A DNA stretch of 64,000 bases from the NCBI GenBank assembly GCA_963578805.1, contig CAUZDY010000003.1, positions 514 to 64,513 of the forward strand, in the 5' to 3' direction. The notes below the pieces were generated by a model that saw nothing but the letters and a program-made list of their open reading frames with translations, was not told the DNA's origin and made no database searches. Shown piece after piece: positions 2,038 to 49,873 of this stretch. The position numbers and the translations under genes are program-made. Source of the DNA: Vicinamibacteria bacterium (GTDB lineage Bacteria > Acidobacteriota > Vicinamibacteria > Vicinamibacterales > UBA8438). Position 1 is the first letter of the stretch. Every line of letters begins with the position of its first letter.

Positions 2038-4113
2038 CTACTGTTGATCCTCATTCGTGGTCTCTTCCATCAGATACAACCAGTGCTCGCTGGCCCGTGA
2101 CAGAATCGGAGCGATGTCCTCGGCCAGCAGGTATCCACCGTCGACCAACTCGAGCGCAACTTGTGACACTAGACCGAGGTAGACTGCACGGCTGCCATAG
2201 CGCTCCTCAACCGACTGCCGCGGGTCGCTGGTGCGCCGCCGATCTGCCATGGTCAGCGGGAAGGGAACGTAGGACCCCTGCATACTCGACAGAACACCTT
2301 CCGGTCCGGCCGCCGCGTTGAAGTTGTTCCACCCTGTATAGGTAGCAAGTGGGACCGCCACCTCGGGCATCATGAGGCCGCCAGTCTCGTTGCCATCGGC
2401 ATCGACCGTTGGCACGAGGATGGGAAACGCTGACAGCACTTCCGGTGGCTCCACCGTCGTGATGCCACGCGAGCGAAACTCCGGCCCGTAGACGGCGCGA
2501 TAGGCCTTGTGCGGTTCGCCGGGTTGAGTGACGCTAGGTAGGCTCGGAAACTCGAAGTGCTCGGCAAGCACGAGGTCGCCGTCGGCAATCATCGGGTACC
2601 GGCTCGGTGGCGGAGGCGTCCCGTCCTTGAGCCACTCGTTCATGGCCACGAGCAGACCTCGCAGGAACCACGAGTAGTCGTTCGGATTACTGAGCTGTTG
2701 CCCGCTCGTCCGTTGTGGCGGGAAGCGCCCTGGGCCGTGCTGCCCTCCGGCAAATGTGTAGATCCGGACGTTGTCCAACAGCGGGGCATCCGCGGTACCG
2801 TCGACCGTGGTGTGGACCAGTGACGCCGCGCGTCCCCAGTACTCGTAGGACGAGTTGGTATGAAAGACCTTTGGCATGTGCCTAGGTTGGATCCTTGAGA
2901 GGAGCCCACCGCGCATGTCGGTTTCAGGGTCGCTCTGCGTGACGTCGCTAAACGGAAAAATGTCACTCGGGTAGAGCTTGTTGAGGAACGGGTGCCCGTC
3001 GCGTGACGGCTGGGCGAAGCGAACGTTGAAGCTGCCCCGACCCCCGCCTGCGACGTGAGCCATGACACCGTCAAACGCTTTTCGGTCGCTCTCGTCTCGA
3101 TTGAATCCGTTATAGAGAAACGTGCGTAGGAGCCGCCCACTCTGCGATACGCCCCAGGCGATCGCGTGGTCGATGGCATCGGAGGGGATGGATAACTCGG
3201 GCGTGGAGTCGTATTTGAGCTGAGAGATCGCGTCGCGGACGGCTGCGAGTCCAAGACCGGAGAGCGGCGGGTCTTGTGCGATATAGACGACGTCGTAGAT
3301 CTTGCTCGGCTGGAACCCAGTCTTGAGATAAACCCGGGTCGGGTCGTCGACGATCTCACCGTTGTCCTCACGACGTGCGAACCGCCACTGGTCGCGCGGC
3401 ACCACACGCCGCGGTTGGTTGACCCCGTCACGGACGGTCATCTGGTTCGCCGGGTCGCTGGGCACGCTGGCCTCGTACGGTAGATGATTTCTGTCGGAGA
3501 GCGACCAGTCGTACGCCAGCTTGCTGACGATGACCTCGCTTCTCACCAGACCGGTGATCGGTGCACCGTTGTTGGTCGCCGTTGGCAAATTCACGCGCAT
3601 CTGCCCTTCGCGTATTGGTGGGTCAAATTGCCACCCAAGCCACAGCAACGTGAAGCCTTGTTTCAACAGAAACCCGTCGCCCATTTCATCGGCCATCCTG
3701 GGGTCACGGCTACCGGATGCATTGTTGTAGTAGGCCAGCATCCCCTTGCGGCCACGGTTCGAGACCTCATAGAACACCGTTCCGTTGCCGCGCGAGATGT
3801 CCTTGGGTTTGATAAGAAAAAAGTTCGAGTGGAACTCGACCTTGCCGTCGGCGTTGAGCGGGGCAAAGTCGATATCGGTGATGATGCGATTGGCCGCGTT
3901 GTCGGGGTCGACCGCGAAATAGATGGTACCGGCGATCCGCTCGTAAGGACCGGCTAGCCCATATGACATTCCGCCAGCCACCTCGGCACGTGAGTCAACC
4001 TCGATCCGGATGATCTCGGCGGAGACCGTTGAGGCCACGAGCAACGGGGCCAGCGTCACCGTTATCGTCAAGGCCAGAAACGTGACTGCTCTCGGCATCT
4101 TCATGATGATCAT
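2038..4113 (-). CDS. Secreted alpha/beta-hydrolase-like protein (resembles the family annotated 'alpha/beta hydrolase domain-containing protein', Abhydrolase_10, from memory)
   Basis: A 691-aa ORF with an N-terminal signal peptide (PRAVTFLALTITVTLAPLLVASTVSA). The opening IIRIEVDSRAEVAGGMSYGLAGPYERIAGTIYFAVDPDN...FAPLNADGKVEFHSNFFLIKP is typical of that family. Confidence 0.6.
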   Translation of the reverse strand: MIIMKMPRAVTFLALTITVTLAPLLVASTVSAEIIRIEVDSRAEVAGGMSYGLAGPYERIAGTIYFAVDPDNAANRIITDIDFAPLNADGKVEFHSNFFLIKPKDISRGNGTVFYEVSNRGRKGMLAYYNNASGSRDPRMADEMGDGFLLKQGFTLLWLGWQFDPPIREGQMRVNLPTATNNGAPITGLVRSEVIVSKLAYDWSLSDRNHLPYEASVPSDPANQMTVRDGVNQPRRVVPRDQWRFARREDNGEIVDDPTRVYLKTGFQPSKIYDVVYIAQDPPLSGLGLAAVRDAISQLKYDSTPELSIPSDAIDHAIAWGVSQSGRLLRTFLYNGFNRDESDRKAFDGVMAHVAGGGRGSFNVRFAQPSRDGHPFLNKLYPSDIFPFSDVTQSDPETDMRGGLLSRIQPRHMPKVFHTNSSYEYWGRAASLVHTTVDGTADAPLLDNVRIYTFAGGQHGPGRFPPQRTSGQQLSNPNDYSWFLRGLLVAMNEWLKDGTPPPPSRYPMIADGDLVLAEHFEFPSLPSVTQPGEPHKAYRAVYGPEFRSRGITTVEPPEVLSAFPILVPTVDADGNETGGLMMPEVAVPLATYTGWNNFNAAAGPEGVLSSMQGSYVPFPLTMADRRRTSDPRQSVEERYGSRAVYLGLVSQVALELVDGGYLLAEDIAPILSRASEHWLYLMEETTNEDQQ

Positions 4114-4129
4114 GGTTTTTTCTTTTCTT

Positions 4130-4348
4130 CTAGCCGCAGCGCAAAGCCTCGATCGGATTCACGCGGCTCGCACGACGAGTTGGTTCGGCTGTTACAACTT
4201 CGCGAACATTACGTTCAAGTCGTGCAACTTGCAGTTGGTCAAATAGGGAACCACTGAATAGCGCCCCCCCCGCACCAATTAAATTAGTAGCGGTCCCTGA
4301 ACCCCGGTAGGTTCCTCGGCTCCGGCAACCGTGAAGTGACTGCGTCAT
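4130..4348 (-). pseudogene. Decayed C-terminal remnant of an FtsX/ADOP-type ABC transporter permease
   Basis: The translation ends ...LIGAGGALFSGSLF...TAEPTRRASRVNPIEALRCG*. This matches the canonical permease C-terminus (...LPARRAARVDPMVALRxE). There is no upstream permease body, and the middle of the fragment has diverged. Confidence 0.5.
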
Positions 4349-4398
4349 GCTGCAGTTGGGAACCGGCCTGGCCGGTTACGATTACCGTGCGTGCGCGC

Positions 4399-5580
4399 CT
4401 ACCGCGCACCACCACCGCCGGTCGTACTATCCTGCGAGAACGGATCAGGCCCCGTCCCCGAGGCAAATGCCTGCTCTTTCATCCGCGCACCGATGAACAT
4501 AGCCGGCAAACCATAGTTCCCATCGTAGCAGCGCGGCTCATAGTAGATACGATTCTCCTGATCGCTCTGACGCGTCAGCTCTTGTCGGACGGTCCACGGC
4601 GCGACCCACACCGTCGAGTCCTCGAATGTGACCTCGTACTCAAGTGTGTCGGCATCGGCGCGTCTATATCGCTCGATGAGCTTGAGGTTTGCATCTGAAC
4701 CGCTCCCGGTAGGTACTCCTCGACCAGGAACCGGGTATCTGTCTGAGAAATTCGTCGTTTCGATGACGAGCGTATCGCCCTCCCATCGCCCGCGTGCGTC
4801 GCCGTGGCGAAGACGGACTTGGCTCGCCGGATGACTCCCGCTCAGGTTGATGACACGCTGGAACCCCTGGCCCTGCCCGGTGTCATAACCCACCGCGACC
4901 GCATCCTCGCCCTGCACGATGCGACGGAAACCGTTGAAATCTGGGGTGCGCCCACCCCTACATCGATCGCTCAAACTTTGATCCTCAGGGCCGTCGTGAC
5001 GATTCATACGCGACGTGTTGTAGAAGGGTGAGACATCGAACCGACGCGGCGATGGGGGACCGTATTCCCCACCCTCGCAGCCGCGGGCGCCTTCCTCGCA
5101 GGTTGGGGTGTTCTGCATGAGCATTTGACGCCACTCCAGCTGGACCTCTACGTTCCGCTGAGCCGCCTCCGTTAGGGCGGGAATCCTCCCATCCGGTGGA
5201 TCGACGACGAGCGACGTGCGTGGCCCCGCAGGCTTCACCGAGGTATAAACGGCGTTGTAGGCCGAAGACACATCTTTCGCTGACCCGCGCTCACCGCGCT
5301 CGAAGCTCCGCCCAGCGGACGGACTCAGTCCTATACGCTCTTGATCTCGTGCCGCACGCTCTTCAGCGGTCGTAAACTCTCGGTCGTTAAGCTCTCGTGC
5401 CCGTTGGAAGGGCGTTGAGTAGACATCGAGCCAGATTCCCTCCAGGTTTGGATGCCCCCACGCAGTGGAGCTCGGAGTCTGACCTACCACCGGTGCCGTA
5501 GTAAGCCGCAGCATTACGATGACCGCTGCAAGCACCATTACCACACCGACCGACTCCAGTAATCGTCGCGTTATTTGCAT
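4399..5580 (-). CDS. Secreted hypothetical protein, uncharacterised family (paralog P1 of 13993..15150)
   Basis: A 393-aa ORF with an N-terminal hydrophobic signal/anchor. Motifs WGHPNLEGIW, GPPSPRRFDV.PFYNTSRMNRHDGPEDQSL, RGRWEGDTLVIETTNF and NRIYYEPRC..GNYGLPA are shared almost verbatim with P2. Confidence 0.85.
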   Translation of the reverse strand: MQITRRLLESVGVVMVLAAVIVMLRLTTAPVVGQTPSSTAWGHPNLEGIWLDVYSTPFQRARELNDREFTTAEERAARDQERIGLSPSAGRSFERGERGSAKDVSSAYNAVYTSVKPAGPRTSLVVDPPDGRIPALTEAAQRNVEVQLEWRQMLMQNTPTCEEGARGCEGGEYGPPSPRRFDVSPFYNTSRMNRHDGPEDQSLSDRCRGGRTPDFNGFRRIVQGEDAVAVGYDTGQGQGFQRVINLSGSHPASQVRLRHGDARGRWEGDTLVIETTNFSDRYPVPGRGVPTGSGSDANLKLIERYRRADADTLEYEVTFEDSTVWVAPWTVRQELTRQSDQENRIYYEPRCYDGNYGLPAMFIGARMKEQAFASGTGPDPFSQDSTTGGGGAR

Positions 5581-6013
5581 GCCTTTTATACCTCTCGAAG
5601 AAATTCTTCGCCTTCCAACGAACTTAACACTGCTTCGTACACCAGAACAGTAAACGAGTCAATGTTTTCGGTCGATTAGCTCAAGATACTGGCCTTCATT
5701 ACCTTAACGTCCTCAGACTTCACACCTCGGTAGATCTCTTCTTTTATCTTTGTGCTCCTTCTGGCGGGTTAGTAACCTGTTTGGCGAGACGGTGCGGCTA
5801 TAACTCTAGACTCGAGGCCAGGAACCGGCCGTTGTGGAAGACAATTCAGTTGCCAATCCTTTACTATTTACTCAGGAGAGATGGGTTCAAGTCGGCTTTG
5901 GATTCGTAGCCGGCTGGAACGTCCTCAGACCGAACAGGGGCACACCGCGGAAGCCCTGGCCCGCAGATCGGCGTTGACCGTAGCGAGTCTCACACCTGTC
6001 TGGAGTCACCAAA

Positions 6014-6883
6014 GTGCAGCCGACTCGTTTTGAAGCCCCGACAACCGTTGCCGATGCTATTCGCCTCATGCAGGCTGAACCGGGCGCAAAGGCACTGGCC
6101 GGCGGTACGGATCTGCTCGTTCAGTACCGCATGGAATCGAGGCGTCCTGCGTCCTTCATCGATCTCAAACGCATTCCAGAGCTGGTCGGAATCACGATCG
6201 ATCGGAAACATATGCGGCTCGGTGCGGCCACGGCGGCGGCGGTCATCTGCGAACACCCGGAAGCGAAACGCTTCTGGCCTGGGCTTGTCGAGGCCATTCA
6301 CCTCATCGGCTCGGCTCAAATTCAGGGGCGAGGTACGGTGGGTGGTAATCTGTGTAACGCCTCGCCAGCCGCCGACACGACCGGTCCGCTTATTGTAAAC
6401 CGTGCGCGCGCCGTGATCGTTGGCCCCCAGGGCGAACGAACCGTCAACGTTGAAGACGTCTCCGTTAGCCCTGGACAGACTGTGCTCGGACGCGGAGATC
6501 TGCTTGTTGCTCTACTGGTCCCATGTCCGGCACCGCGGACGGCAGACGCATATCTGCGGCTCATCCCCAGAACTGAGATGGATATTGCGGTCGCCGGCGC
6601 GGCCGTCAGTGTCACGCTGGACGAGCTTGGCCTGTGTACGGCGTCCCGCGTGGCGATCACTGCCGTAGCGCCGACGGTATTACTGGTGCCCGAGGCAGCG
6701 CGGGCGCTCATCGGATCCCACCTGGACGATGAGGCGTTGCGGCTCGCTGGTGCCGCCGCGAGTGCAGCCGCGAGACCAATCGACGACAAGCGGGGCACGA
6801 ACTCTTATCGGCGGACCGTGGTCGGCGTGCTCACTCGCCGTGCCACTACGATCGCCGGCAGGCGCGCCTCGTTACCCATGTGA
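6014..6883 (+). CDS. Molybdenum hydroxylase (xanthine dehydrogenase/CoxM-like) FAD-binding subunit
   Basis: FEAPTTVADAIRLMQAEPGAKALAGGTDLLV... and GTVGGNLCNASPAAD are typical of the FAD-binding medium subunit. GTG start with GGAG upstream. The stop overlaps the next gene. Confidence 0.85.
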   Translation: MQPTRFEAPTTVADAIRLMQAEPGAKALAGGTDLLVQYRMESRRPASFIDLKRIPELVGITIDRKHMRLGAATAAAVICEHPEAKRFWPGLVEAIHLIGSAQIQGRGTVGGNLCNASPAADTTGPLIVNRARAVIVGPQGERTVNVEDVSVSPGQTVLGRGDLLVALLVPCPAPRTADAYLRLIPRTEMDIAVAGAAVSVTLDELGLCTASRVAITAVAPTVLLVPEAARALIGSHLDDEALRLAGAAASAAARPIDDKRGTNSYRRTVVGVLTRRATTIAGRRASLPM

Positions 6884-7380
6884 GGGATCTGTCGGTGACG
6901 AAACTACATATAAAGACAATACTCAACAGCGAACCGGTCGAGTTCCTCTGCGAACCGGTCGAAACATTGCTGGACGCCCTGCGTGATCGGCTCAATCTCA
7001 CCGGCACCAAGGAGGGTTGCGCGACCGGTGACTGCGGCGCCTGCTCCGTGCTCCTCAACCGGCGCCTCGTCCCGTCGTGTCTCGTGCTCGCGGCCGAAAT
7101 AGACGGCCAGGATGTTCTCACCATCGAGGGCATCGCGCAAGGGGAGACGCTCCACCCTATCCAGCAGAAACTCCTCGAACATGCGGCACTTCAGTGTGGC
7201 ATCTGTACGCCAGGCTTCGTGGTCTCAGCCAAAGCGCTTCTGGATCAGAATCCAAACCCAACTGAAGAAGAAGCCCGATACTGGCTCGCCGGAAATCTGT
7301 GCCGCTGCACCGGCTATGACAAGATCATTCGCGCAGTGATGGATGCAGCGGAATCCATGAGGAGCGATGAGACGCAATGA
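6880..7380 (+). CDS. Molybdenum hydroxylase (2Fe-2S)-binding small subunit (CoxS-like)
   Basis: LTGTKEGCATGDCGACSV and CGICTPG...NLCRCTGY are the two [2Fe-2S] cysteine motifs. The start could be GTG 6880 or GTG 6895. Confidence 0.85.
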   Translation: MRDLSVTKLHIKTILNSEPVEFLCEPVETLLDALRDRLNLTGTKEGCATGDCGACSVLLNRRLVPSCLVLAAEIDGQDVLTIEGIAQGETLHPIQQKLLEHAALQCGICTPGFVVSAKALLDQNPNPTEEEARYWLAGNLCRCTGYDKIIRAVMDAAESMRSDETQ

Positions 7381-9638
7381 GCGGTGAACGAGTATTCAAA
7401 TACGTCGGCACGAGACCAATTCGTCACGACGGCCTCGATAAGGTCACCGGGCGCGCTAACTATGGCGCCGACTTCACCCTCCCAGGCCTATTGCACGGGT
7501 ACGTCCTTCGCAGCCCGCACGCACATGCGCGGATTATGTCGATCGACACGTCGGCAGCCGACGCGATGCCAGGCGTGAAGGCGGTCATCACCGGTGCGGA
7601 CATCCCGAAGACGACCGGGGTGGTCTTACTGGGCAAGGAAGGCCGCTACGACCTTGGCGACATGGGTGACAACCTACTCGCGCACGACACGGCGCTGTAT
7701 GAGGGTCATGCCGTCGCGGCTGTCGCCGCGACGTCCGTAGAGATCGCCCGTAACGCCGCTGAACGAATCATTGTCCACTACGAGAATTTGTCGCCCGTCC
7801 TGACGGTCGACCAAGCCCTGGCACCTGGCGCGACGATTCTGCACGACGGCCTGGTCACCAAGGGGCAGCCGCTTCCGGACGCTCCGACGCGCACGAATGT
7901 TGCGATGCGCACGGAACTGCGCCGCGGCGACGTCGACAAAGGCTTTGCCGAGTCCGACATCATCGTCGAGCGCCAGTTTACGACCCCAATGGTCCATCAG
8001 GGCTACATCGAACCGCACGCGTGTGTCGCCCGCTACGGTGAGGATGGCCAGATCCTGGTATGGACCTCGACGCAGGGACAATTCATCGTTCGCGACTGCT
8101 GTGCCGGCATTCTCGGTGTCGACGCCGCTACGATTAAGGTAATCCCGAGCGAGATCGGCGGTGGATTCGGTGGCAAGATTCCGGTGTATCTCGAGCCAGT
8201 AGCCATCGCGCTGTCCCGCAAAGCGCATCGCCCAGTCAAAATCGTCATGTCGCGTGACGACGTGTTCCGCGCATCGGGTCCGACATCCGGAACCAAAGTA
8301 CGGATGAAGATCGGGGTGAAGCAGAACGGCACGATCGTCGCGGCCAGTGGTTCGCTCTACTACGAAGCGGGTGCATATCCAGGGTCGCCGGCCGGTGCGG
8401 GAGCGATGTGCGCGCTGGCGGCATACAAGATCCCACACTTCGTCATCGAGGCTTACGACATCGTCGTCAACCGTCCCAAGGTAGCCGCCTATCGGGCACC
8501 CGGCTCACCGTCGTCCACGTTCGCCACCGAGTCGATACTCGACGAAATCGCCAACCGGCTCGAGATCGACCCGATCGACTTCCGGCTAAAGAATGCGATG
8601 ATGGAGGGCGACCAAGCTCCGTACGGACCAAAATACGGACCGATCGGTCTAAAACAGGTCCTTGAGTCTGCGAAGAACCACCCGCACTGGAAGGCACCGC
8701 TCGGCCCAAACCAGGGCAGGGGTGTCGCCTGCGGCTTCTGGTTCAACGCCGGTTTGAGTTCGAGCGCGACCGTCTCACTGAGCGGCGATGGCAGTGCGAC
8801 TGTCGTCACCGGTAATCCGGATATCGGTGGGACGCGTGTGGCACAGGCACTCATGGTGTCAGAGGAGCTCGACATTCCGATCGAGCGTGTTCGTCCGACG
8901 GTGGCTGACACCGACAGCATCGGCTACAGCGACCTCACGGGTGGTAGCCGCGTGTGTTACGCCACCGGTATGGCCGTGATCAAGGCCGCCCAAGATGTCC
9001 GCGACCAGCTTCTCGCGCGTGCCGCAAAAATCTGGGACGTGGGCGTCGACAAGGTCACTTGGGACAATGGCTGTGCCGTTCCGCTCGAGCCCTCAGCTGA
9101 CCGAACGTCGCTGACACTGCGTCAACTAGCCGAGCAGATGCCGCACACCGGAGGCCCCATTATCGGGCGTGCCAGCGTGAGCGCACCAATGGCTGGACCC
9201 GCGTTCGCGGTAAACATGTGCGACATCGAGGTGGACAAGGAAACAGGTGTCAGCCGCGTCGTCAGATACACGGCCATTCAGGATGTCGGCAAGGCGGTGC
9301 ATCCGAGCTTCGTCGAAGGACAGATGCAGGGAGGCGCAGCACAGGGGATCGGCTGGGCATTAAATGAGGAATACCTCTACAGTCCTGACGGCGTGATGCA
9401 GAACGCTGGATTCCTCGACTACCGCATGCCGGTCGCGTCCGACCTGCCGATGATCGACACGGTGCTCATCGAGGTCGGAAATCCACTCCACCCCTACGGC
9501 GTGCGTGGGGTTGGCGAGGTCCCGATCGTGCCGCCGCTCGCCGCGGTCGCGAACGCAATGAACGACGCTACCGGCATCCGCTTCACCGATCTCCCCCTCT
9601 CACCGCCTCGCGTGCTAAAGGCGCTACTGAGAAACTGA
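7377..9638 (+). CDS. Molybdopterin-binding large subunit of a xanthine dehydrogenase-family oxidoreductase (aldehyde oxidase/CoxL-like, not form I CODH)
   Basis: A 753-aa ORF with VTGRANYGADF, MVHQGYIEPHA, GGGFGGK and AAYRAPGSP motifs. It lacks the VAYRCSFR loop of true CO dehydrogenases. Confidence 0.9.
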   Translation: MSGERVFKYVGTRPIRHDGLDKVTGRANYGADFTLPGLLHGYVLRSPHAHARIMSIDTSAADAMPGVKAVITGADIPKTTGVVLLGKEGRYDLGDMGDNLLAHDTALYEGHAVAAVAATSVEIARNAAERIIVHYENLSPVLTVDQALAPGATILHDGLVTKGQPLPDAPTRTNVAMRTELRRGDVDKGFAESDIIVERQFTTPMVHQGYIEPHACVARYGEDGQILVWTSTQGQFIVRDCCAGILGVDAATIKVIPSEIGGGFGGKIPVYLEPVAIALSRKAHRPVKIVMSRDDVFRASGPTSGTKVRMKIGVKQNGTIVAASGSLYYEAGAYPGSPAGAGAMCALAAYKIPHFVIEAYDIVVNRPKVAAYRAPGSPSSTFATESILDEIANRLEIDPIDFRLKNAMMEGDQAPYGPKYGPIGLKQVLESAKNHPHWKAPLGPNQGRGVACGFWFNAGLSSSATVSLSGDGSATVVTGNPDIGGTRVAQALMVSEELDIPIERVRPTVADTDSIGYSDLTGGSRVCYATGMAVIKAAQDVRDQLLARAAKIWDVGVDKVTWDNGCAVPLEPSADRTSLTLRQLAEQMPHTGGPIIGRASVSAPMAGPAFAVNMCDIEVDKETGVSRVVRYTAIQDVGKAVHPSFVEGQMQGGAAQGIGWALNEEYLYSPDGVMQNAGFLDYRMPVASDLPMIDTVLIEVGNPLHPYGVRGVGEVPIVPPLAAVANAMNDATGIRFTDLPLSPPRVLKALLRN

Positions 9639-9889: not shown

Positions 9890-11833
9890 CTACGGCAGGC
9901 TTAGTGCCACCCATTCGGGCGGATGCGTGGTCGAACCAATCGGCATCACGATGTATTGCGTTCCGTCGTGTAGATAGGTCATCAATGCGCCGGTCGTGCC
10001 GGCTGGCAACTCGTACTCCCACACGACGGCCCCGGTCGCTTTGTCAAAGGCTCGGAGCTTCTTACTGTCACTGGCTCCGTGCCCTGGCGGGGTCAGAATC
10101 ATGCTCGGATCGCCCTCACTCACGAACAGCAGTGTCTTGGTTACAAGCGTCATGCCGTGACCAGGCTGACCTAATGGCGGTAGATTCAAGTGCCTCAGGT
10201 CTGGATGATCCCGTGGACCGTCGCCGTTTGGCACCATCCATACATGGTCGCCGGTATTCAGATCCATGGCGGTGATCCGGCCATACGGTGGTTTGGTCAA
10301 CGGTAGGCCACGTGGGCCGACGACGGGGCCGCGTGTCCCGCGGTAGGCTTGGGCGGCCGGATCGTCACCGCCTGGGCTCAGGCGAACAAAAAACGCTCCG
10401 GTTCTCGACGGCGCGTACAACATCCCGGTCTCTGGATCGAAGCCGCCACCACCCCAATTGGTGCCACCCACGTGTCCAGGCACCAAGATCGTGCCCTTCA
10501 TATCGCTCGGTGCCTCGCCGCCCAGCGTCGGGGGCGTATAAAGCGGTCCCAGCACATACTGCTTCGCGATTTCAACCGCTTCGGCCCGCAGCTCCGGTGT
10601 GAAATCGATGAGGTCGTCGACGGTAATTCCAACCTGCTCGTAAGGTGCCGGCCTCGTCGGGAACGGCTGCGTCGGAGCCGTCCACTCGCCAGGCACGTCC
10701 GACTCGGGGACCGGCCGTTCCTCGATCGGCCAAACTGGCTCACCGGTCACACGGTCCAGCACAAAGGCCAGGCCCTGTTTGGTGAGCTGCACAAGTGCCT
10801 TGATCGGTCTGCCGTTAACGGTGATGTCCGTCAGAATCGGCGGCGTAGGGTTGTCATAGTCGAAGATATCGTGATGCACCGTCTGAAAGTGCCACACTCG
10901 CTCTCCGGTGTCGGCACGGACGCACACAATACTGCACGAGAAAAGATTGTTGCCAGGACGATGACCGCCATACATGTTATTGGTGGGCGCGCTGGTCGGG
11001 AGATACACCAGACCGAGCTCCTCGTCTGCGCTCATCGTCGACCAGACGTCCGCCTCGCCGGCCGAAATCCCTTTCCACGAATCGCCCAGCCACGTGTCGC
11101 CGCCAAAATCGTCAGGTCCAGGAATCACGCCAAAGCTCCAGCGCAGGCTCCCACTGTTCAGATCATAGCCCCGGACATCTCCAGCGCGTCGCACGGAGGA
11201 GCCGACGACCACGACGTCTCCTACAACCATCGGAGCCGAGCGCCAGCGGTAGCTGTCAGCGGGGTCTGAGGCATCTTCGTAGTACCTCAAGTCAACCTTG
11301 CCCTCATCGCCAAAACTACGAATTAACTTCCCAGTCTTCGCATCGGTCGCAATCAGGTACTGACGGCGCACGGACAAAATACGCTCACCGGTCTCACTGC
11401 GCCAGAACGCGACCCCTCGACTCGCCTCTCCAGCGAGGGTCTCAGCGGTCTCTTCCTCCTCTAGTTCTTGCACCCAGAGCGTCTCGCCAGTCGACGGATC
11501 CATGGCCTCGACAAGACCGATGCCGTTTGACGCGTAGAGCACTCCATTGACCATGATCGGAGTTGACTGAAGTCCTCGTGAAGTCCCCGTGCTCACATCG
11601 GGGTGTTGCGCACGGAATTCGTCGGTCAAAGCCGGACGCCGCCAGGCAATCCGCAGATTCTTGACGGTGTCTTTGTCGATCTGGTCGAGCGGGGAGTATT
11701 TGGTGAAGCCCTTATCACCGCCCGCATTCGGCCACTCGCCGCGCGTGACGCCCTCTTGCGCCCCAAGCGCCGCGCCAGACGAAATTACCGCAAAACAGAC
11801 TAGAAGATGGTAACGTCTCATTCGTCGCATCAT
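9890..11833 (-). CDS. PQQ-dependent dehydrogenase (soluble glucose/sugar dehydrogenase-like beta-propeller), secreted
   Basis: A 647-aa ORF with a signal peptide. GEWPNAGGDKGFTKYSPLDQIDKDTVKNLRIAW... has the same architecture as 23129..25105 and is about half identical to it. Confidence 0.85.
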   Translation of the reverse strand: MMRRMRRYHLLVCFAVISSGAALGAQEGVTRGEWPNAGGDKGFTKYSPLDQIDKDTVKNLRIAWRRPALTDEFRAQHPDVSTGTSRGLQSTPIMVNGVLYASNGIGLVEAMDPSTGETLWVQELEEEETAETLAGEASRGVAFWRSETGERILSVRRQYLIATDAKTGKLIRSFGDEGKVDLRYYEDASDPADSYRWRSAPMVVGDVVVVGSSVRRAGDVRGYDLNSGSLRWSFGVIPGPDDFGGDTWLGDSWKGISAGEADVWSTMSADEELGLVYLPTSAPTNNMYGGHRPGNNLFSCSIVCVRADTGERVWHFQTVHHDIFDYDNPTPPILTDITVNGRPIKALVQLTKQGLAFVLDRVTGEPVWPIEERPVPESDVPGEWTAPTQPFPTRPAPYEQVGITVDDLIDFTPELRAEAVEIAKQYVLGPLYTPPTLGGEAPSDMKGTILVPGHVGGTNWGGGGFDPETGMLYAPSRTGAFFVRLSPGGDDPAAQAYRGTRGPVVGPRGLPLTKPPYGRITAMDLNTGDHVWMVPNGDGPRDHPDLRHLNLPPLGQPGHGMTLVTKTLLFVSEGDPSMILTPPGHGASDSKKLRAFDKATGAVVWEYELPAGTTGALMTYLHDGTQYIVMPIGSTTHPPEWVALSLP

Positions 11834-12279
11834 TACATCATCGCCCCTTCAGATACCGCCTATCCTAAACGAATCACTCGGGACGGGGCCACTTTTCCAC
11901 GTGCTGCCGGTAGCTTCTATTTAACCGAATCGAAAGCCCCATTGCCGGTTTCACGTGAAGGTGTAGCCTCGGTAGCGGATTCCAAGGCAGCTGCTGGATC
12001 GACCGGCTGTGTGCCAGTGTAGCAGGCCGAACCTTGGGACACTGGTCAGCTCAGAAACTGGGTCTCGGGTGGGTACGACGACTGAAGAAGGGAGCGCGTC
12101 CGTCGAAGAAAAACCGCGATGGGACTCGTCAACAAACCGTGCCGAGGGCGGTGTGTCCTAGAAGGCCTGGCAAGAGGCTGAACCGGTCAAGCGTCGTCTG
12201 CCGCTTGATTGAGGCGGCCCCCCTTGAGTCTGCTCACGATGCTGTTGTCATCAGGGTCTAAGCCTATACAACAGTTGCC

Positions 12280-12312
12280 GGAGCGGATGGCCTCTTGATG
12301 ACCATCCGCTCC
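12280..12312 (-). terminator. Perfect 11-bp stem (12 bp if the flanking C12279-G12313 pair is counted) with an 11-nt loop, downstream of the DUF6152 gene
   Basis: ggagcggatgg-cctcttgatga-ccatccgctcc, about 60 nt after the stop at 12372. There is no U-tract, so intrinsic-terminator function is uncertain. Confidence 0.3.
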
Positions 12313-12371
12313 GCACGTGGTGGAAAACCAACGGAGGCGGTAAACAGGAGAACGAAATTTCGATCCGCCGA

Positions 12372-12833
12372 CTACTGACCTGGATCAGCCGTGTCAACAC
12401 CGGGTCGGGCCAGCTCGTATGGTGCGCCAGTGCCCGATGAACCCAGAAACAGCTTGGTTCCATCTTGGAGGGTGATGTCGCGGCCGTTGGCTCGGTTCGT
12501 CCCATCCTTCGCCTGATACCCATCGACCATCACGTCGGTCCCTGGGAGGAGCGAGTCTCTCGTGAAGCCCCTCCGGAACAATACGTTCGGAGTCCCTGCC
12601 TCGAATGCCCACGCCTCGGTTGAGCCATTGTCAAGATTCACATCCATGTGAATCCAAACGTGAGGATTAACCCACTCGACCCTCGTGACAGTTCCGCTAA
12701 ACTCAACCGGCCTATCGGCGTCGAACTCGGCAGCAAACGCATGATGTGCTTCCACTGGCGCGGTCGCCCCCACCAGCCACAGGCCGATCCCGCCCACCGC
12801 TATTACGACCGCAGTTATCTGTCTCGCTCTCAT
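12372..12833 (-). CDS. DUF6152 family protein, secreted
   Basis: The internal ATG at 12831-12833 is preceded by AAGGGAGG. The product is MRARQITAVVIAVGGIGLWLVGATAPVEA|HHAFAAEFDADRPVEFSGTVTRVEWVNPHVWIHMDV...AWAFEAGTPNVLFRRGF... Confidence 0.75.
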   Translation of the reverse strand: MRARQITAVVIAVGGIGLWLVGATAPVEAHHAFAAEFDADRPVEFSGTVTRVEWVNPHVWIHMDVNLDNGSTEAWAFEAGTPNVLFRRGFTRDSLLPGTDVMVDGYQAKDGTNRANGRDITLQDGTKLFLGSSGTGAPYELARPGVDTADPGQ

Positions 12834-12876
12834 GGAAATTCCTCCCTTATTCCTACCATCTAACAGAATTGTTCTT

Positions 12877-12934
12877 ATTATATATGTCTCTCTCAATGTC
12901 TCGGTATATATATCTCTCTCTCTCAATATCTCGG
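12877..12934 (-). repeat. Two tandem imperfect copies of an AT-rich unit of about 29 nt, just upstream of the DUF6152 start (putative promoter/regulatory repeat)
   Basis: In gene orientation the copies read CCGAGATATTGAGAGAGAGAGATATATATA / CCGAGACATTGAGAGAGACATATATAATAA. The second copy contains TATAAT. The region is strikingly AT-rich and low-complexity for this genome. Confidence 0.5.
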
Positions 12935-12958
12935 TCTTTGAGCGCCCAGGCCCTGCTA

Positions 12959-13936
12959 CTACCTTCTATACCAATCGTGGAGTGCATCACCCTCTGGAAT
13001 CTTTCGAGTGATATCGACGATGAGCGTCTCGCCTTCCCAGCGCTTGACTAACTGATTCCGGCGAAGGTGCCCATACATGAACTCCTCTGCGAATTCCATG
13101 CACGGATAGTCCAGCACCGTGGCACCCGGTTCCAGGCGGCGATAGAGCGGCATGGCGATCGACCAGGGCTCGGTAAAGGTGTTCGGATCGGTTAGAGTCA
13201 CCTCATACCAGATCGCATCAGGTGACAACGGCGTAAACCGCTCAGTCAGCTCCAGGGCCTCGCTGTGAAAATTGCCGGCCCGGTCCAACCAGGTCTTGCC
13301 GTTGAAGTAGTCGACAGTGACTACCAAGGTGTTCCCCTCCCATCGCCCGACCGAGTGCCCCATAAAGGTGTAGTCGGGTGGGCCTGTGACGTCGTCCAGA
13401 TGAATCACGCGCGCGGCGTTTGAAAACCCGAATGTCATGTGAATCTTGTTGGTGCTCTGCGCGATCTGGAAGGGATAGGGCATGTACATCGCTCGCGGGA
13501 TACCTGGAAGGTAGCACTTGAGCTCGGGGTCCCGGTCGATCCAGTTTGCGGCGTTCTCTTGTTTGATCTGGAGTGCCTCTGGCGTGTACGGAATCCGACC
13601 AGCGCCCTCAACGACACCGATTGAGCCCGGTACCCCCCCAGCAGCGCCGAGCGCCACCACCGGTGCCGCGGGCACCTTGGCAAACTCGAACGGATAAACA
13701 CCCTGCTGCTCCACCATGCCCGAACGCGCCTCGTGAGCTTCCAGGTCCCAGTGTGCTTCATTGAGGGCCTGCCACACACCGTTGAAGTTCGGGTGTCCGT
13801 CTGGGGTCTCCGCGGAACGGTCCGGCGGCCCCTGGGGTTGGCTGGCCGTCCCAGTCACCGTGGCAGAAATGATCGCACCCGCCGCGGCGGCAGCTAATGC
13901 GGTTAGAACTGTCGATCCCTTAAATACTTTTCCCAT
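12959..13936 (-). CDS. Secreted hypothetical protein (P3), a distant member of the P1/P2 family
   Basis: A 325-aa ORF with a signal peptide. It shares PDGHPNFNGVW (cf. WGHPNLEGIW), GHSVGRWEGNTLVVTV (cf. RGRWEGDTLVIET) and LTERF..LSPDAIWYEVTLTDP..FTEPW (cf. LTERYMRIDGDTLAYEVTIEDS..WTGPW). Confidence 0.8.
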   Translation of the reverse strand: MGKVFKGSTVLTALAAAAAGAIISATVTGTASQPQGPPDRSAETPDGHPNFNGVWQALNEAHWDLEAHEARSGMVEQQGVYPFEFAKVPAAPVVALGAAGGVPGSIGVVEGAGRIPYTPEALQIKQENAANWIDRDPELKCYLPGIPRAMYMPYPFQIAQSTNKIHMTFGFSNAARVIHLDDVTGPPDYTFMGHSVGRWEGNTLVVTVDYFNGKTWLDRAGNFHSEALELTERFTPLSPDAIWYEVTLTDPNTFTEPWSIAMPLYRRLEPGATVLDYPCMEFAEEFMYGHLRRNQLVKRWEGETLIVDITRKIPEGDALHDWYRR

Positions 13937-16957: not shown

Positions 16958-17161
16958 TCAATCGTCGCCAGAACGAGCGCCGACTGTGATGTCGTGACCA
17001 TCATTGCCTTCGAGACTAGCTGCAACAGTCACAGTGAGCGTGATCGGCTGACAGCACACCTGGCAGTCTTCGATATATTCCTGCCGACGCACGGAACAAT
17101 CGATGGAAACCTCGAGCGTCTCTCCGCAGTACGGGCAGCGAATCTGCTCGGTCTCCATCAT
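16958..17161 (-). CDS. CPXCG motif-containing cysteine-rich protein
   Basis: MMETEQIRCPYCGETLEVSIDCSVRRQEYIEDCQVCCQPITLTV matches the CPxCG...C.VCC family. I placed the start at the internal ATG 17159-17161 of the ORF 16958..17209. Confidence 0.7.
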   Translation of the reverse strand: MMETEQIRCPYCGETLEVSIDCSVRRQEYIEDCQVCCQPITLTVTVAASLEGNDGHDITVGARSGDD

Positions 17162-17417
17162 GTCTGCCAATGGTGACAAACGGCTAACCCTGGTCATGAT
17201 CGACGTCATAGACGGTCACCTTGAGTGTCACCAGTCGGTCAATGGGAATCCAGCGTAAGAAAAAGAGCGGCCATGCCACCTTAGTTGATGCATTAGAGCA
17301 CCCAGTAGCAGCCCATGGCTGAGGGCAGTGGCTGCATAGCAAACGGCGATGACTTTCGGATTGCTGCTTCTGTGCGATGCTCTAAATAGACACCTTACAA
17401 GTCGATCGGATCCAAAA

Positions 17418-17864
17418 TCAGTGAGAAGAGAACCGAGTCAACCTACCGTCCTCATCGAACGCGATTACATCGTATGGCTGAGAATTTGGTCCCTCCATCC
17501 CCGGCGACCCGAGTGGCATACCCGGCACCGCGATCCCTTTGATCGGCGGACGATCCGCGAGGAGACGCTTGACATCTTCCGCCGGCACGTGCCCTTCGAC
17601 GACGTACCCCTCAACCATCGCCGTATGACACGATGTCACCCGTTCCGGGATCCCGACCATTTCCTTGACCCGGTTAATGTTCGGCACGTCCTTGGTCTTG
17701 ACCGTAAATCCGTGCTCTTCAAGATGTGCGACCCACATCGAGCAACAGCCTCACGTCGGGGACTTATAGACCTCAACGACCGGCTCCTCCTGTCCAGGCG
17801 CCGCTCCGATCACGATCCCCGTGACGACCAGGTAGCACGACAGCATCAGAATAACTAACCGCAT
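17418..17864 (-). CDS. copG: DUF411/CopG-family periplasmic copper-binding protein with an in-frame TGA (17751-17753) at the first Cys of the CxCC motif; candidate selenoprotein, otherwise a pseudogene
   Basis: My translation from ATG 17862-17864 gives MRLVILMLSCYLVVTGIVIGAAPGQEEPVVEVYKSPT[TGA]GCCSMWVAHLEEHGFTV...SCHTAMVEGYVVEGHVPAEDVKRLL...GIAVPGMPLGSPGME... The frame is the same before and after the TGA. All DUF411 hallmarks are present. Confidence 0.6.
17713..17744 (-). promoter_or_regulatory. SECIS-like hairpin directly downstream of the in-frame UGA of the DUF411 gene
   Basis: The mRNA reads UGA-GGCUGU-[UGCUC][GAUGUG]GGUCG[CACAUC]UUGAA[GAGCA]. It has a 5-bp lower stem, a 5-nt 3' bulge, a 6-bp upper stem and a GGUCG apical loop. 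The G-U of the loop sits 22-23 nt from the U of UGA; in the E. coli fdhF SECIS the GGUC loop is at 22-25. Confidence 0.5.
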
Positions 17865-17953
17865 AGACAAGCCCCCATTGTGGTTGGATTATTGATCGAA
17901 TGCCACCAGGGTTCACAAGGGTCTCCCCACGCCACCCCATCACACATCATAAC

Positions 17954-18223
17954 TTAACGGTCGCCGCGCTTAGAACCAGCGAACTGCCGGTGGTGCCCCT
18001 GGGATTGCGCCATCCCGGCCGGTCCCTTACTGCCCTTACCCACCCCTGATGACGCATCGTCGATGATCTCGACGTCACCGGCCTCCACCATACCCTGCAC
18101 CGACTCCCGTTCGGCATCGTGCGTGGCAATCTGACCTTCCTTGGAGGGTCCCAAACGCAGCACCCGCCCTTGCGAAAGCTTAACCCTTAATGGCCGCCGC
18201 GTCTTATTGAGAATAATCTTCAT
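17954..18223 (-). CDS. Hypothetical small protein (89 aa)
   Basis: ORF only; MKIILNKTRRPLRVKLSQGRVLRLGP... I recognised no family. Confidence 0.4.
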   Translation of the reverse strand: MKIILNKTRRPLRVKLSQGRVLRLGPSKEGQIATHDAERESVQGMVEAGDVEIIDDASSGVGKGSKGPAGMAQSQGHHRQFAGSKRGDR

Positions 18224-23128: not shown

Positions 23129-25105
23129 CTACGGGAGACTGAACGCGACATGCCGCGGGGGCGCCTCGTCGTCCCCGGCGACACCCACGACGATGTATTG
23201 CTTCCCCTCGTGGAGATAGGTGATCGGGGCACCGGTGGTGCCGGCAGATAGCTCGTGCTCCCAGACAACATCGCCAGTCGCCTTATCATACGCGCGGAAC
23301 CAAGGCTCACCGTAGTTCGTCACGATCTCAGCAGGCATGCCAACTGGCACCCGTCCACCGCTGTTGCGCGCGTCGGAACCCTCGCCCACAAAGAGAAGCG
23401 ACCCGGTAGCGAGCGGTGAGGGACGACCGGGCCACCCGAGCCGTCCTAAATTGAGATGGCGGATTGCCGGGTGGTTTCGCGGACCGTTGCCGTTCGGTAC
23501 CTGCCAGACGATCTCAGCCCGGTTCATGTCAATCGCCGTGATGCGACCATAAGGCGGTTTAAACAGCGGGAGGCCACGCGGTCCGCCGATCCACAGACGA
23601 GTTCCCTTTACGAAGCTCAGATTCGTTCGGTCGGGATTCCCCTCGAGAACGTCCGCCACGAACGGCGCCGTGATCGAGGGAATATAGAGAATGTTGGTTG
23701 CGGGGTCGAAAGCAGCACCCTGCACATCGGCACCACCCTGCGACCCCGGCAGCTGAATCGTCCCGAGGTTGCCGTCCGGTTCGTCGGTGCGGACCGATGG
23801 CGGCGTGAACATAGGTCCGATGGTGTAGCGCTCAACAATCTCCAATGCTTCGGCCCTGAGCTCTGGGGTGAAGTCGATCAGGTTGTCGATCGTCGCGCCT
23901 TGGCGGTCGAACGCTGGCGGCTTCGTGGGGAACGGCTGCGTCGGTGACGTCACCTCACCCGGCGTCGTCGACTGTGGGACGGGCCGCTCCTCAATCGGCC
24001 ACACCGGATCTCCCGTCACGCGATCAAAGACGTAGGCGAACGCCTGCTTGGTGATCTGTGTGACGGCCTTGATGGTACGGCCATCAACCTCGATGTCCAT
24101 CAAGATGGGAGCGGCCGGCGGATCATAGTCCCACAGACCGTGATGGACGAGCTGAAAGTGCCACACGCGCTCCCCCGTCGTCGCATCGACACACACGAGA
24201 CTCTGGCTAAAGAGGTTGTCACCAACCCGATGGCCACCAAACATATCGTTCGTCGACGAGGTCACCGGGAGGTAAACGTAACCGAGTTCCTCGTCGGCAC
24301 TAAATAGCGACCAGACCGGTGCGTGACCGCTGTATTGCCACGAGTCGTCCTCCCACGTGGAGGTCCCAAATTCGCCCACCTGCGGAACGGTGTGAAACAC
24401 CCAGCGTAACTCCCCGGTTCGTACATCGAAGGCCCGTACGTCGCCACGAACATCCTCCTTGGTCACGAACGTATCCGACATCGACTGCCCCACCACGATG
24501 ACGTCTCGAATCACCGTAGGAGCACCGCCCCACCGATATCGCGCGCCCTCCGCCAATCCTGTCGTTAGATCGACCCGCCCACCATCGCCGAAATCGTCGA
24601 AGGGTCGACCGGTCTGACTGTCAAGCTCGATGAGCCACTGGCCGCGCTGCACGATGATCCGCTGGTCGTCACCATCGGCCCAATATGCGACACCGCGGGT
24701 CACCGTTCCGCGAAACGACGCCGGCGGATCGTCGAACGGCTGCTGCACCCAGACGGTTTCGCCGGTGCCCGGATCGAATGCTTCGACCAAGCCTACCCCG
24801 TTGGGGCTATAGAGCACGCCATCGACCATCAGAGGAGCGGCAATAAAATTGTTGCCATAACTCAGGTCGGGAACCACGTCGAGAATGGACCGATCGACGG
24901 CGACCCGTTCCCACGCGACCTCCAAGTCTTGGACATTGTCTCGAGCGATCTGGTCGAGCGGTGAGTATTTGGTCGCAGCGAGATCGCCCGCATAGTGGCG
25001 CCACTGATCACCGGGGCTCTGCGCAAGCACTTGAGCTACACCAAGACTGAACAGAAAGAGTAGGCAGGCGAAGAGTGATCCCAACAGGTTTCTAGCCAAA
25101 GCCAT
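23129..25105 (-). CDS. PQQ-dependent dehydrogenase (soluble glucose/sugar dehydrogenase-like beta-propeller), secreted; paralog of 9890..11833
   Basis: A 658-aa ORF with a signal peptide. DQWRHYAGDLAATKYSPLDQIARDNVQDLEVAW... is colinear with the other copy down to the C-terminal ...WEHELSAGTTGAPITYLHEGKQYIV. Confidence 0.85.
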   Translation of the reverse strand: MALARNLLGSLFACLLFLFSLGVAQVLAQSPGDQWRHYAGDLAATKYSPLDQIARDNVQDLEVAWERVAVDRSILDVVPDLSYGNNFIAAPLMVDGVLYSPNGVGLVEAFDPGTGETVWVQQPFDDPPASFRGTVTRGVAYWADGDDQRIIVQRGQWLIELDSQTGRPFDDFGDGGRVDLTTGLAEGARYRWGGAPTVIRDVIVVGQSMSDTFVTKEDVRGDVRAFDVRTGELRWVFHTVPQVGEFGTSTWEDDSWQYSGHAPVWSLFSADEELGYVYLPVTSSTNDMFGGHRVGDNLFSQSLVCVDATTGERVWHFQLVHHGLWDYDPPAAPILMDIEVDGRTIKAVTQITKQAFAYVFDRVTGDPVWPIEERPVPQSTTPGEVTSPTQPFPTKPPAFDRQGATIDNLIDFTPELRAEALEIVERYTIGPMFTPPSVRTDEPDGNLGTIQLPGSQGGADVQGAAFDPATNILYIPSITAPFVADVLEGNPDRTNLSFVKGTRLWIGGPRGLPLFKPPYGRITAIDMNRAEIVWQVPNGNGPRNHPAIRHLNLGRLGWPGRPSPLATGSLLFVGEGSDARNSGGRVPVGMPAEIVTNYGEPWFRAYDKATGDVVWEHELSAGTTGAPITYLHEGKQYIVVGVAGDDEAPPRHVAFSLP

Positions 25106-48151: not shown

Positions 48152-48338
48152 GATTTTCCCTGCAATGTGCGTGATGGTCTAGGGGCTCGTTTGAACCAAC
48201 GTTATATCGAAGTGAGCTGCGATGCTTCGTGGTGTGCATGCCTTCGAGTGAGGAAGCCTGAAGCGAAGCTCCTGAGCGGCTCCACCTGCTAGAGCAGGTT
48301 CATACGACCTCCCCACACGGCAGCGCGGGGTCTCTCTC
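48152..48338 (+). ncRNA. ssrS: 6S RNA (SsrS), predicted; ends approximate
   Basis: It lies downstream of zapA, as in E. coli. GGTGTGCATGCC...GAGGAAGCCTGAAGC parallels E. coli GGUGAGCAUGCUCGG...GAGAAGCCUUAAAAC. A CACC+hairpin (CCTGC-TAGA-GCAGG) sits where E. coli has CACC-UUGAACC..GGUUCAA. The ends pair imperfectly (CCCTGC.. 48158 with ..GCGCGGGG 48330) into a long rod with a central bubble. Confidence 0.6.
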
Positions 48339-48835: not shown

Positions 48836-49873
48836 ATGGATCATGCGTTGACCGATCAGACCGTCACCGACCTCGGTGAGCACGCGCTCATTCGCCGTAT
48901 CCACACCCGCGTGCCTCCCCCCCCGCCATCAGTGATCCTGGGTATCGGCGATGATGCCGCCGTCGTCGAGTCTGACCGCGGGTCCCTCTCGGTCATCACG
49001 ACCGACACAATGGTAGAAGGTGTGCACTTCGACCGGACACTCACCCCGATGGACGCGGCCGGCGGAAAGGTCCTGACCGCAAGCCTCAGTGACCTGGCGG
49101 CGATGGGCGCAACACCCCGATACGCGCTCCTGTCACTCTGTCTCCCTGACAAGCTTCTGGTCTCCGACGTCGACAACATACTCGACGGTCTGTTGGCACT
49201 GGCAGCCCGGTTCAAAACGGCGTTGGTTGGAGGGAACATTACTCGGTCGGGTGGTGCGTTGTCTCTTGATGTGACCGCAGTGGGCAGCGTCAAACGTCGG
49301 CGTATCCTTACACGCACCGGGACACTCCCAGGCGACGACTTGTACGTAAGCGGTGAGATCGGTGGTGCAGCCACTGGTCTCTCATGGATGAGAGACGGAA
49401 AACCCGATCAGCCGATGGGGGTAGCCATGGAAGATTGCAGGCACCGATACCTCTGGCCAGAGCCTCGCGTCCGGCTCGGCACTCAGCTGGGGAGAAACCG
49501 TGCCGCTCGAGCTTGTATCGATCTCAGCGACGGACTCGCTGACGGGATTCGTCAACTATCCCAAGTCGGCGCAGTCGGGGCGAGGATCGACGCCACACTC
49601 ATCCCGATTGCACCTGGAGCCAGGCACTGGTCTGAGATCCACGATGCAGACCCAATCCTGGAGGCAATGACGGGCGGTGAGGACTACGAACTGCTGTTTA
49701 CAGCACCGCCCAGTATGCGTCGGCGGGTGGCCGCAGCCCAGCGCCTTGCCGGCAAGCTCGCGGTGACACGGATCGGACAAATGACCAAGGACCCTGCCCT
49801 GGTGTTGGTGCACAACGGCAACCCGACGGCGCTTCCAGCCGGGTACGAACACTTTCGCGCGACTGATTCCTGA
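48836..49873 (+). CDS. thiL: Thiamine-monophosphate kinase
   Basis: LGEHALIRRI...ILGIGDDAAVV...TTDTMVEGVHF...G.KVLTASLSDLAAMGATP. Confidence 0.85.
   Translation: MDHALTDQTVTDLGEHALIRRIHTRVPPPPPSVILGIGDDAAVVESDRGSLSVITTDTMVEGVHFDRTLTPMDAAGGKVLTASLSDLAAMGATPRYALLSLCLPDKLLVSDVDNILDGLLALAARFKTALVGGNITRSGGALSLDVTAVGSVKRRRILTRTGTLPGDDLYVSGEIGGAATGLSWMRDGKPDQPMGVAMEDCRHRYLWPEPRVRLGTQLGRNRAARACIDLSDGLADGIRQLSQVGAVGARIDATLIPIAPGARHWSEIHDADPILEAMTGGEDYELLFTAPPSMRRRVAAAQRLAGKLAVTRIGQMTKDPALVLVHNGNPTALPAGYEHFRATDS

Follow-up and report, generated by a model that had tools for sequence, protein, structure and literature searches.

The DNA studied here is a stretch of 64 kb from a Vicinamibacteria bacterium (contig CAUZDY010000003.1); the whole stretch is called the window and positions are counted on its forward strand. 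On its minus strand it carries a gene for a CopG (DUF411) protein whose reading frame contains exactly one in-frame TGA, and this codon, a candidate selenocysteine (Sec) codon, is the subject of the analysis. The gene extends from an ATG at 17864 to a stop codon at 17420..17418. An alternative in-frame TTG is present at 17870, but the ATG is favoured since the homologs begin with MRL or MRI. The features of the gene are the following:

17418..17864, minus strand: complete coding sequence of CopG/DUF411 when the UGA is taken as a sense codon, 148 codons and a stop, with the proposed Sec at codon 38
17799..17864, minus strand: predicted Sec-type signal peptide MRLVILMLSCYLVVTGIVIGAA, cleavage site approximate
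17751..17753, minus strand: in-frame UGA, proposed Sec codon (codon 38), at the first Cys of the CxCC motif (here U-G-C-C)
17418..17738, minus strand: open reading frame (ORF) of 106 amino acids (aa) given by gene callers, starting with an ATG four codons past the UGA (from the ORF list)

When the TGA was read as Cys, the translation matched the Pfam family DUF411 (PF04214) with 94.2 bits (cut-off 27, E=3.7e-27) and the CopG protein of P. aeruginosa (PDB 6WIS, 6WIS_A) with E=3.7e-29 over residues 4-117. A prediction made earlier from the letters alone (the original prediction) had described a DUF411/CopG gene interrupted by one TGA at 17751-17753, and translation and Pfam score confirm this. 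The motifs it had named (VYKSPT-x-GCC, SCHT, EGHVP and VPGMPxGSPGME) are all present, as VYKSPT*GCC, in which the asterisk is the TGA, SCHT, EGHVP and VPGMPLGSPGME. It had further placed the TGA at the first Cys of CxCC. Indeed, in the alignment with 6WIS the TGA column is the first Cys of CGCC, and CGCC, SCHT, EGHVP and GMPxGSPGME are conserved column for column; moreover, Cys is found at this position in the 46 Cys-type loci described below.

The N-terminus of all homologs has a positive charge and a hydrophobic core, and this leader, taken together with the periplasmic role of CopG (PMC8456105), suggests that the CopG-like protein is exported. In relatives, gene callers split the gene into an ORF of 37 aa and one of 106 aa, and among the matches listed there are dozens of database entries of 105-109 aa which are named 'hypothetical protein' only. 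The genetic code of the window is standard and TGA is an ordinary stop elsewhere, terminating 19 of the 54 ORFs. Antisense to the CopG gene lies an R/P-rich ORF of 169 aa (17349..17858, plus strand), which looks like a shadow ORF and not like a gene.

TGA and Cys codons in related genes

A homolog scan of one genome per GTDB species yielded 80 loci, and further contigs raised the total to 89. The codon at the Sec column, TGA in the window gene, was also TGA in 34 of the 80 loci and TGC or TGT in the other 46. Over the 89 loci, TGA was found 39 times, TGC 30 times and TGT 20 times, and TAA, TAG or any other codon not once. A cross-locus BLAST aligned Cys to the TGA of the window in 41 of 41 hits. 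The carriers of the TGA are nearly all metagenome-assembled genomes of Vicinamibacterales (Acidobacteriota), several of them closed long-read chromosomes, and the TGA form makes up one large Vicinamibacterales clade and a separate Binatia-like lineage. The recurrence of TGA/Cys pairs at this column, by which the original prediction could be checked, was thus found in 34 of 80 loci and in a second lineage.

This second lineage is represented by L080 (Candidatus Binatia), which was placed outside the Vicinamibacterales clade in a neighbour-joining tree. A protein search with L080 gave dozens more clusters of 105-109 aa among the matches listed, and the DNA of three such Binatia-type clusters has the same TGA after ...Y(K/A)xPT. 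The Binatia-type hairpin has a 7-bp stem and a G-first triloop 21 nucleotides (nt) downstream. The TGA form of this lineage may have an independent origin or may have been acquired by transfer; the short neighbour-joining tree fits either. In the Binatia-type locus L095 (about 7230..7262), the 10 nt GTGAGGCTGT, covering the TGA and the next codons, are absent, which puts the upstream part out of frame; the locus may be a real pseudogene, or the JGI contig may be misassembled here.

The ratio of nonsynonymous to synonymous changes (pN/pS) over the ten codons before the TGA amounted to 0.146 at a pS of 0.64, compared to 0.29-0.40 for the domain after the TGA. These ten codons are under stronger purifying selection than the downstream domain. 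With the TGA as a stop, the part before it would serve no function; its purifying selection therefore argues for a ribosome that reads on past the UGA. An ATG located 35-49 codons before the TGA and a hydrophobic leader (Kyte-Doolittle 12-residue maxima of 2.0-3.1) have been retained in all TGA genes. The codon that precedes the conserved Trp downstream of the TGA is ATG or GTG in the window and in many relatives, but GGA, GGG, AAG or CAG in many TGA lineages, and since no start codon is conserved before the Trp, a separately initiated product of 106 aa is argued against. One Vicinamibacterales chromosome, OZ253664.1, carries two TGA-type paralogs (L017 and L019), 48 kb apart.

The hairpin downstream of the UGA

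Directly behind the UGA, starting 6 nt past it, the mRNA can be folded into a hairpin that resembles a bacterial selenocysteine insertion sequence (SECIS). Its parts, as given by the fold, are:

17713..17744, minus strand: SECIS-like hairpin inside the coding region, from nt +10 to nt +41 when counted from the U of the UGA
17744..17740 with 17717..17713, minus strand: lower stem, 5 bp
17739..17734 with 17728..17723, minus strand: upper stem, 6 bp
17733..17729, minus strand: apical loop GGUCG
17722..17718, minus strand: 3' bulge, 5 nt

Counted from the U of the UGA, the loop residues G and U are nt 22 and 23, and GGUC covers nt 21-24. The folds confirm the interrupted hairpin of 11 bp with a GGUCG loop and a G-U at 22-23 that the original prediction had drawn, and its claim of a geometry like that of the SECIS of E. 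coli fdhF (UGA codon 140), in which GGUC lies at nt 22-25, is right to within one nt. The bSECIS criteria demand a loop of 3-9 nt with a G in its first two nt, an upper stem of 4-16 bp, a distance of 16-37 nt from the UGA and a minimum free energy (MFE) of -7.5 kcal/mol or lower (PMC13188914). The window hairpin agrees with all of them, having a 5-nt loop that starts with GG, an upper stem of 6 bp, a spacing of 17 nt and an MFE of -15.6 kcal/mol. Compared to dinucleotide shuffles its z-score was -2.66, and only 1 of 200 shuffles was as stable.

The comparison of TGA and Cys genes was more telling. The bSECIS criteria were passed by 33 of 35 TGA genes but by only 16 of 47 Cys genes (Fisher p=1.3e-8), so that the bacterial SECIS model speaks for the original prediction not only in the window, where the consensus is matched, but also through the enrichment of the hairpin in TGA genes. 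At equal GC content the mean MFE was -11.3 kcal/mol in TGA genes and -7.1 kcal/mol in Cys genes (Mann-Whitney p=1e-8). Further, all 32 distinct TGA sequences were more stable than their synonymous resamples (mean z -1.16, Wilcoxon p=5e-10), whereas the Cys genes were unbiased (mean z -0.10).

The structure of the hairpin is kept while its sequence changes. Related clades have shifted stem registers and loops of 3 or 7 nt, but the G-rich loop remains 17-21 nt from the UGA. Switches between A-U and G-C occur without mismatch at the pair 16-30 in 17 of 17 and at the pair 18-30 in 12 of 12 sequences; the base at the third His-codon position changes together with its upstream partner, which differs between the registers. 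Formal covariation in register B was above the shuffle control on two measures (9/500 shuffles). In the paralogs L017 and L019 the His of the W-V-A-H-L segment is replaced by Tyr (CAC to UAC), and a hairpin persists through a different pairing scheme; the hairpin of L017 contains a bulged A.

A natural control is provided by two full-length Cys orthologs, P0001 and P0003, the nearest of this kind among the matches listed, with 148 aa each, which are 79-80% identical to the window protein and occupy the same syntenic slot. In the neighbour-joining tree they are nested deep in the TGA clade, adjoining the window gene, and are therefore regarded as Sec-to-Cys revertants. One revertant hairpin has changed from AUG to AAG in the upper stem and from GAGCA to GAACA in the lower stem and has only -3.7 kcal/mol; in the second the lower stem is gone and the energy is -7.8 kcal/mol, compared to -12.4 kcal/mol for the window hairpin. 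From these sequences, the revertant hairpins appear to be decaying, as if constraint had been relaxed after the reversion from Sec to Cys. Such nested reversions with decaying hairpins are a clean natural experiment on SECIS constraint within a coding sequence.

Proposed selenocysteine insertion and alternative readings of the UGA

The TGA genes carry a recoding signature with three elements: a Sec/Cys pair, selection before as well as after the UGA, and a SECIS that is particular to these genes. The same three observations support what the original prediction had proposed, a Sec-containing CopG/DUF411 protein with a SECIS, and it is very probable that the product of the gene is a Sec-containing CopG (DUF411), a small and presumably exported copper protein with a thioredoxin fold. 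As the mRNA is translated, the hairpin located 10-41 nt past UGA-38 would serve as a bacterial SECIS. Its GGUC-containing apical loop would recruit SelB-GTP-Sec-tRNA(Sec), and the ribosome would insert Sec and not terminate. The precursor of 148 residues would then be exported by means of its N-terminal signal peptide, and the mature protein would have U-G-C-C where characterised CopG has C-x-C-C. By general Sec chemistry, a selenolate at this site would have a lower pKa and would be softer and more nucleophilic as a ligand or redox centre. In this scheme the insertion of Sec, the export, the binding of copper and any catalytic advantage are all predictions.

According to what PMC8456105 reports on CopG, citing Hausrath 2020, the cysteines of the motif ligate and bridge a tetranuclear Cu cluster, and the protein is a Cu(I)/Cu(II) oxidoreductase; it contributes to copper resistance under anaerobic conditions, as stated in the summaries of Hausrath et al. 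2020 given in PMC8456105 and PMC8872213. Taking all together, we lean towards a wider reading, in which Sec-CopG is an uncatalogued family whose Sec is a bridging ligand of a multinuclear Cu cluster, i.e. a natural Cu-Se cluster in an exported protein, and in which this form of CopG predominates in Vicinamibacterales and seems to have originated once more in a Binatia-like lineage. If this were true, copper handling outside the cytoplasm would in these soil bacteria be linked to the availability of selenium.

Several results weigh against Sec insertion. Resampling of synonymous codons in the window hairpin with the peptide fixed gave no significant effect (z=-0.95, p=0.17), because the conserved x-W-V-x-H-L peptide itself favours the hairpin; the single hairpin of the window is thus not compelling alone, and the case for a SECIS rests on the comparison with relatives. 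A third of the Cys-type genes also satisfy the loose bSECIS criteria, since the conserved Trp-Val codons supply a G-rich loop. Formal covariation in register A was not above the shuffle control. Covariation as a whole is modest, with counts that probably reflect few independent events, and therefore the SECIS case was rested on the contrasts between TGA and Cys genes instead.

The machinery for Sec synthesis and insertion was also not encountered. The 64-kb window contained no tRNA-Sec (ARAGORN and Rfam gave only a tRNA-Val and a 6S RNA) and no selA, selB or selD (Pfam on large ORFs, tblastn with E. coli SelA and SelB). No tRNA-Sec was present in the 34 TGA-type loci or four further contigs. 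In 632 kb of related DNA, a tblastn search that used SelA, SelB and SelD of E. coli as queries retrieved only ThiL and a LepA-type GTPase. A screen for Sec/Cys pairs in ~0.63 Mb, which recovered DUF411 as control, revealed no second selenoprotein family. The DNA scanned for the Sec machinery (the window and ~0.68 Mb from relatives) covers only a minor part of genomes of 4-7 Mb, so that the selABCD negatives neither support nor refute Sec. At the level of the phylum there is a precedent for Sec, as 3 known selenoprotein genes are listed for another species of Acidobacteriota (PMC12013277).

Some candidates were rejected in the course of these searches. An AIRS/AIRS_C ORF of 345 aa (48836..49873, plus strand), considered as SelD, is ThiL (TIGR01379, 274 bits; selD, 59 bits at a cut-off of 125). 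A SelB-like GTPase encoded beside the CopG gene in L033, L040 and L059 is LepA/EF4. The other candidates from the Sec/Cys-pair screen were out-of-frame or antisense echoes of real genes. The 6S RNA (SsrS) of the window is full-length (48154..48335, plus strand; RF00013, 88.8 bits) and lies between an ORF of 136 aa and thiL.

If the UGA were a genuine stop, the gene would be a pseudogene, or it would code for a leader peptide of 37 aa and a separately initiated cytoplasmic DUF411 fragment of 106 aa, starting at the AUG or GUG four codons downstream; the hairpin would then be incidental or would modulate re-initiation. The ORF of 106 aa is what all gene callers give, the window and many relatives do have a possible start (ATG or GTG) before the Trp, and the absence of Sec machinery from the scanned DNA fits as well. 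However, such a fragment would have neither the signal peptide nor the first residue of the metal-binding motif, and its supposed start is replaced by GGA, GGG, AAG or CAG in many TGA genes. The codons upstream are under stronger purifying selection than the domain and are in frame with it in the 34 TGA loci, the stop codon is always TGA and never TAA or TAG, and a pseudogene would not stay intact over lineages that are ~45% apart in protein sequence. We consider termination at this codon very improbable. A sequencing or assembly error is a further explanation, since a single base separates TGA from TGC or TGT, and the original prediction had itself pointed to it. It is refuted by the recurrence of the codon in 34 loci from independent assemblies, dozens of TGA assemblies in all with long-read complete chromosomes among them, and in many metagenome contigs (ENA, JGI, Logan, NCBI, Tara), so that its probability is practically nil.

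Evidence for translation through the UGA does not itself identify the inserted residue. The codon could be read without selenium, by a near-cognate tRNA (Trp or Cys), by a suppressor tRNA or through leakiness stimulated by the hairpin, which would put an ordinary residue at position 38 and would not call for the Sec machinery that was missing from the scanned DNA. Against this, the alternative codon is always one for Cys (TGC or TGT) and never one for Trp, which is the signature of Sec/Cys exchange. The hairpin fits the SelB-type SECIS consensus and is within 1 nt of the fdhF geometry, and TGA is a normal stop elsewhere in the window. To our knowledge, conserved hairpin-dependent recoding of UGA at a bacterial Cys ligand site has so far meant Sec. 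Readthrough without selenium is thus improbable, and Sec insertion is preferred as the explanation of the UGA.

Gene neighbourhood, significance and known relatives

The CopG gene is flanked by two small genes on the same strand:

16958..17209, minus strand: Cys-rich CPXCG zinc-ribbon protein (PF14255, E=9.5e-20), downstream of the CopG gene
17954..18223, minus strand: protein of 89 aa without Pfam or NCBIfam hit, directly upstream of the CopG gene

The CPXCG gene is also present in the syntenic loci L081-L083, L085, L086 and L088 and is a conserved neighbour by position only. The gene for the 89-aa protein is found at the same position in L081-L083 and L085-L088, i.e. in all syntenic loci with upstream sequence, TGA-type as well as Cys-type, and its product may be a functional partner of the CopG-like protein. 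The small Cys-rich ORFs that the original prediction had seen around the gene were thus recovered in part: the CPXCG protein downstream stands, but the 89-aa ORF upstream contains no Cys. The syntenic order is YajQ, the 89-aa ORF, DUF411, then CPXCG (L085, L086, L088), and DUF169. The neighbours of the CopG gene are YajQ/DUF520, the 89-aa protein, CPXCG, DUF169, DUF6152 and PQQ dehydrogenases; a copper-resistance cluster (copA, cusCBA, cueO), in which copG genes often but not necessarily lie, does not surround it.

Other arrangements were seen in relatives. In L081-L083 (about 10400..13700) and in L087 and L088 (about 10450..12550), the CopG and CPXCG genes are separated by an inserted gene for a Ser/Thr protein kinase, which IS elements (DDE and rve transposases) interrupt in places; the window has no such insertion. 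L033, L040 and L059 (about 3368..5900), members of a single Vicinamibacterales subclade, have lepA (EF4) as the next gene after CopG, and in L033 at least, a gene for a LepB-like signal peptidase comes after it; this neighbourhood differs from that of the window. The window further contains two paralogous PQQ-dependent alcohol/glucose dehydrogenases (9890..11833 and 23129..25105, both minus strand; PF01011, about 600 bits each), 11 kb apart, which flank the CopG neighbourhood. Genes for molybdenum enzymes of the xanthine-dehydrogenase/CO-dehydrogenase family (FAD, small and large subunits) are present in the window (6014..9638, plus strand) and in L081-L083, L092, L093 and L095. In Vicinamibacterales as well as in Binatia-like contexts they lie repeatedly no more than about 10 kb away from the TGA-type CopG gene. 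A selenium-dependent cofactor is known from some members of the enzyme family.

A link between DUF411, COG3019 or CopG and selenoproteins was not found in the searchable literature, nor was anything useful on Vicinamibacteria and selenium. Neither PF04214 nor CopG is among the families tabulated in a May 2026 review on prokaryotic selenoproteomes (PMC13188914), and Sec-CopG is not mentioned in the main texts of the 2008 GOS survey and a 2022 review. No selenoprotein model of NCBIfam release 20 matched; the best was TIGR02196 with 15.9 bits at a cut-off of 88.55. Sec-CopG is therefore apparently an uncatalogued selenoprotein family, as far as the searchable catalogues go, BSepDB not being among them.

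For annotation, this would add a well-supported family to the bacterial selenoproteome and correct a systematic error in gene calling, by which dozens of clusters (NCBI, ENA, JGI, Logan, Tara) are represented by a stump of 106 aa that has lost the signal peptide and the metal-binding motif. For chemistry, a selenolate is predicted where the Cu4 cluster of CopG is ligated and bridged, which would offer a natural system for the study of Se-Cu coordination. Sec at this site may also help to define the function of CopG: Sec usually marks a catalytic redox residue, and this would favour the view of CopG as an oxidoreductase over a pure storage or chaperone role. With respect to ecology, a need for selenium in the handling of copper outside the cytoplasm is suggested for members of a common soil order.

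Compared to the SECIS of E. coli fdhF, the window hairpin is alike in being located within the coding sequence directly 3' of the UGA and in its two-part stem. The loop has 5 nt instead of 4 nt. The upper stem of fdhF has a bulged U at nt 18, which is important for the binding of E. coli SelB, whereas the upper stem in the window is a perfect 6-bp helix without bulge. The stems are unrelated in sequence and encode different peptides.

With CopG of P. aeruginosa (PDB 6WIS/6WJE) the window protein shares the aligned motifs and an N-terminal export signal, which is predicted here, but the first Cys of the motif is encoded by UGA and the host belongs to the Acidobacteriota (Vicinamibacterales). 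Unlike many copG genes, the window gene lies outside a cop/cus/cue cluster, and copper binding is putative.

The table of PMC13188914 lists CopZ-family (2Fe-2S)-binding selenoproteins, the SO_0444 family Cu/Zn efflux transporter (UxC), the thioredoxin-like selenoproteins Sec.1/Sec.2 and distant Grx-like UxxT proteins. Sec in copper-handling proteins has precedents, and new bacterial selenoprotein families are regularly found. As in the tabulated CopZ-family, SO_0444 and thioredoxin-like selenoproteins, Sec would replace Cys in a short Cys-rich redox or metal motif, Cys homologs are widespread and the SECIS lies inside the ORF. In contrast to the tabulated proteins, the window protein belongs to a different family (PF04214), and the role predicted for its Sec is that of a ligand of a multinuclear copper cluster. 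What makes Sec-CopG noteworthy is the predicted selenolate in a Cu4 cluster, its dominance in an abundant soil order and the clean control provided by its revertants.

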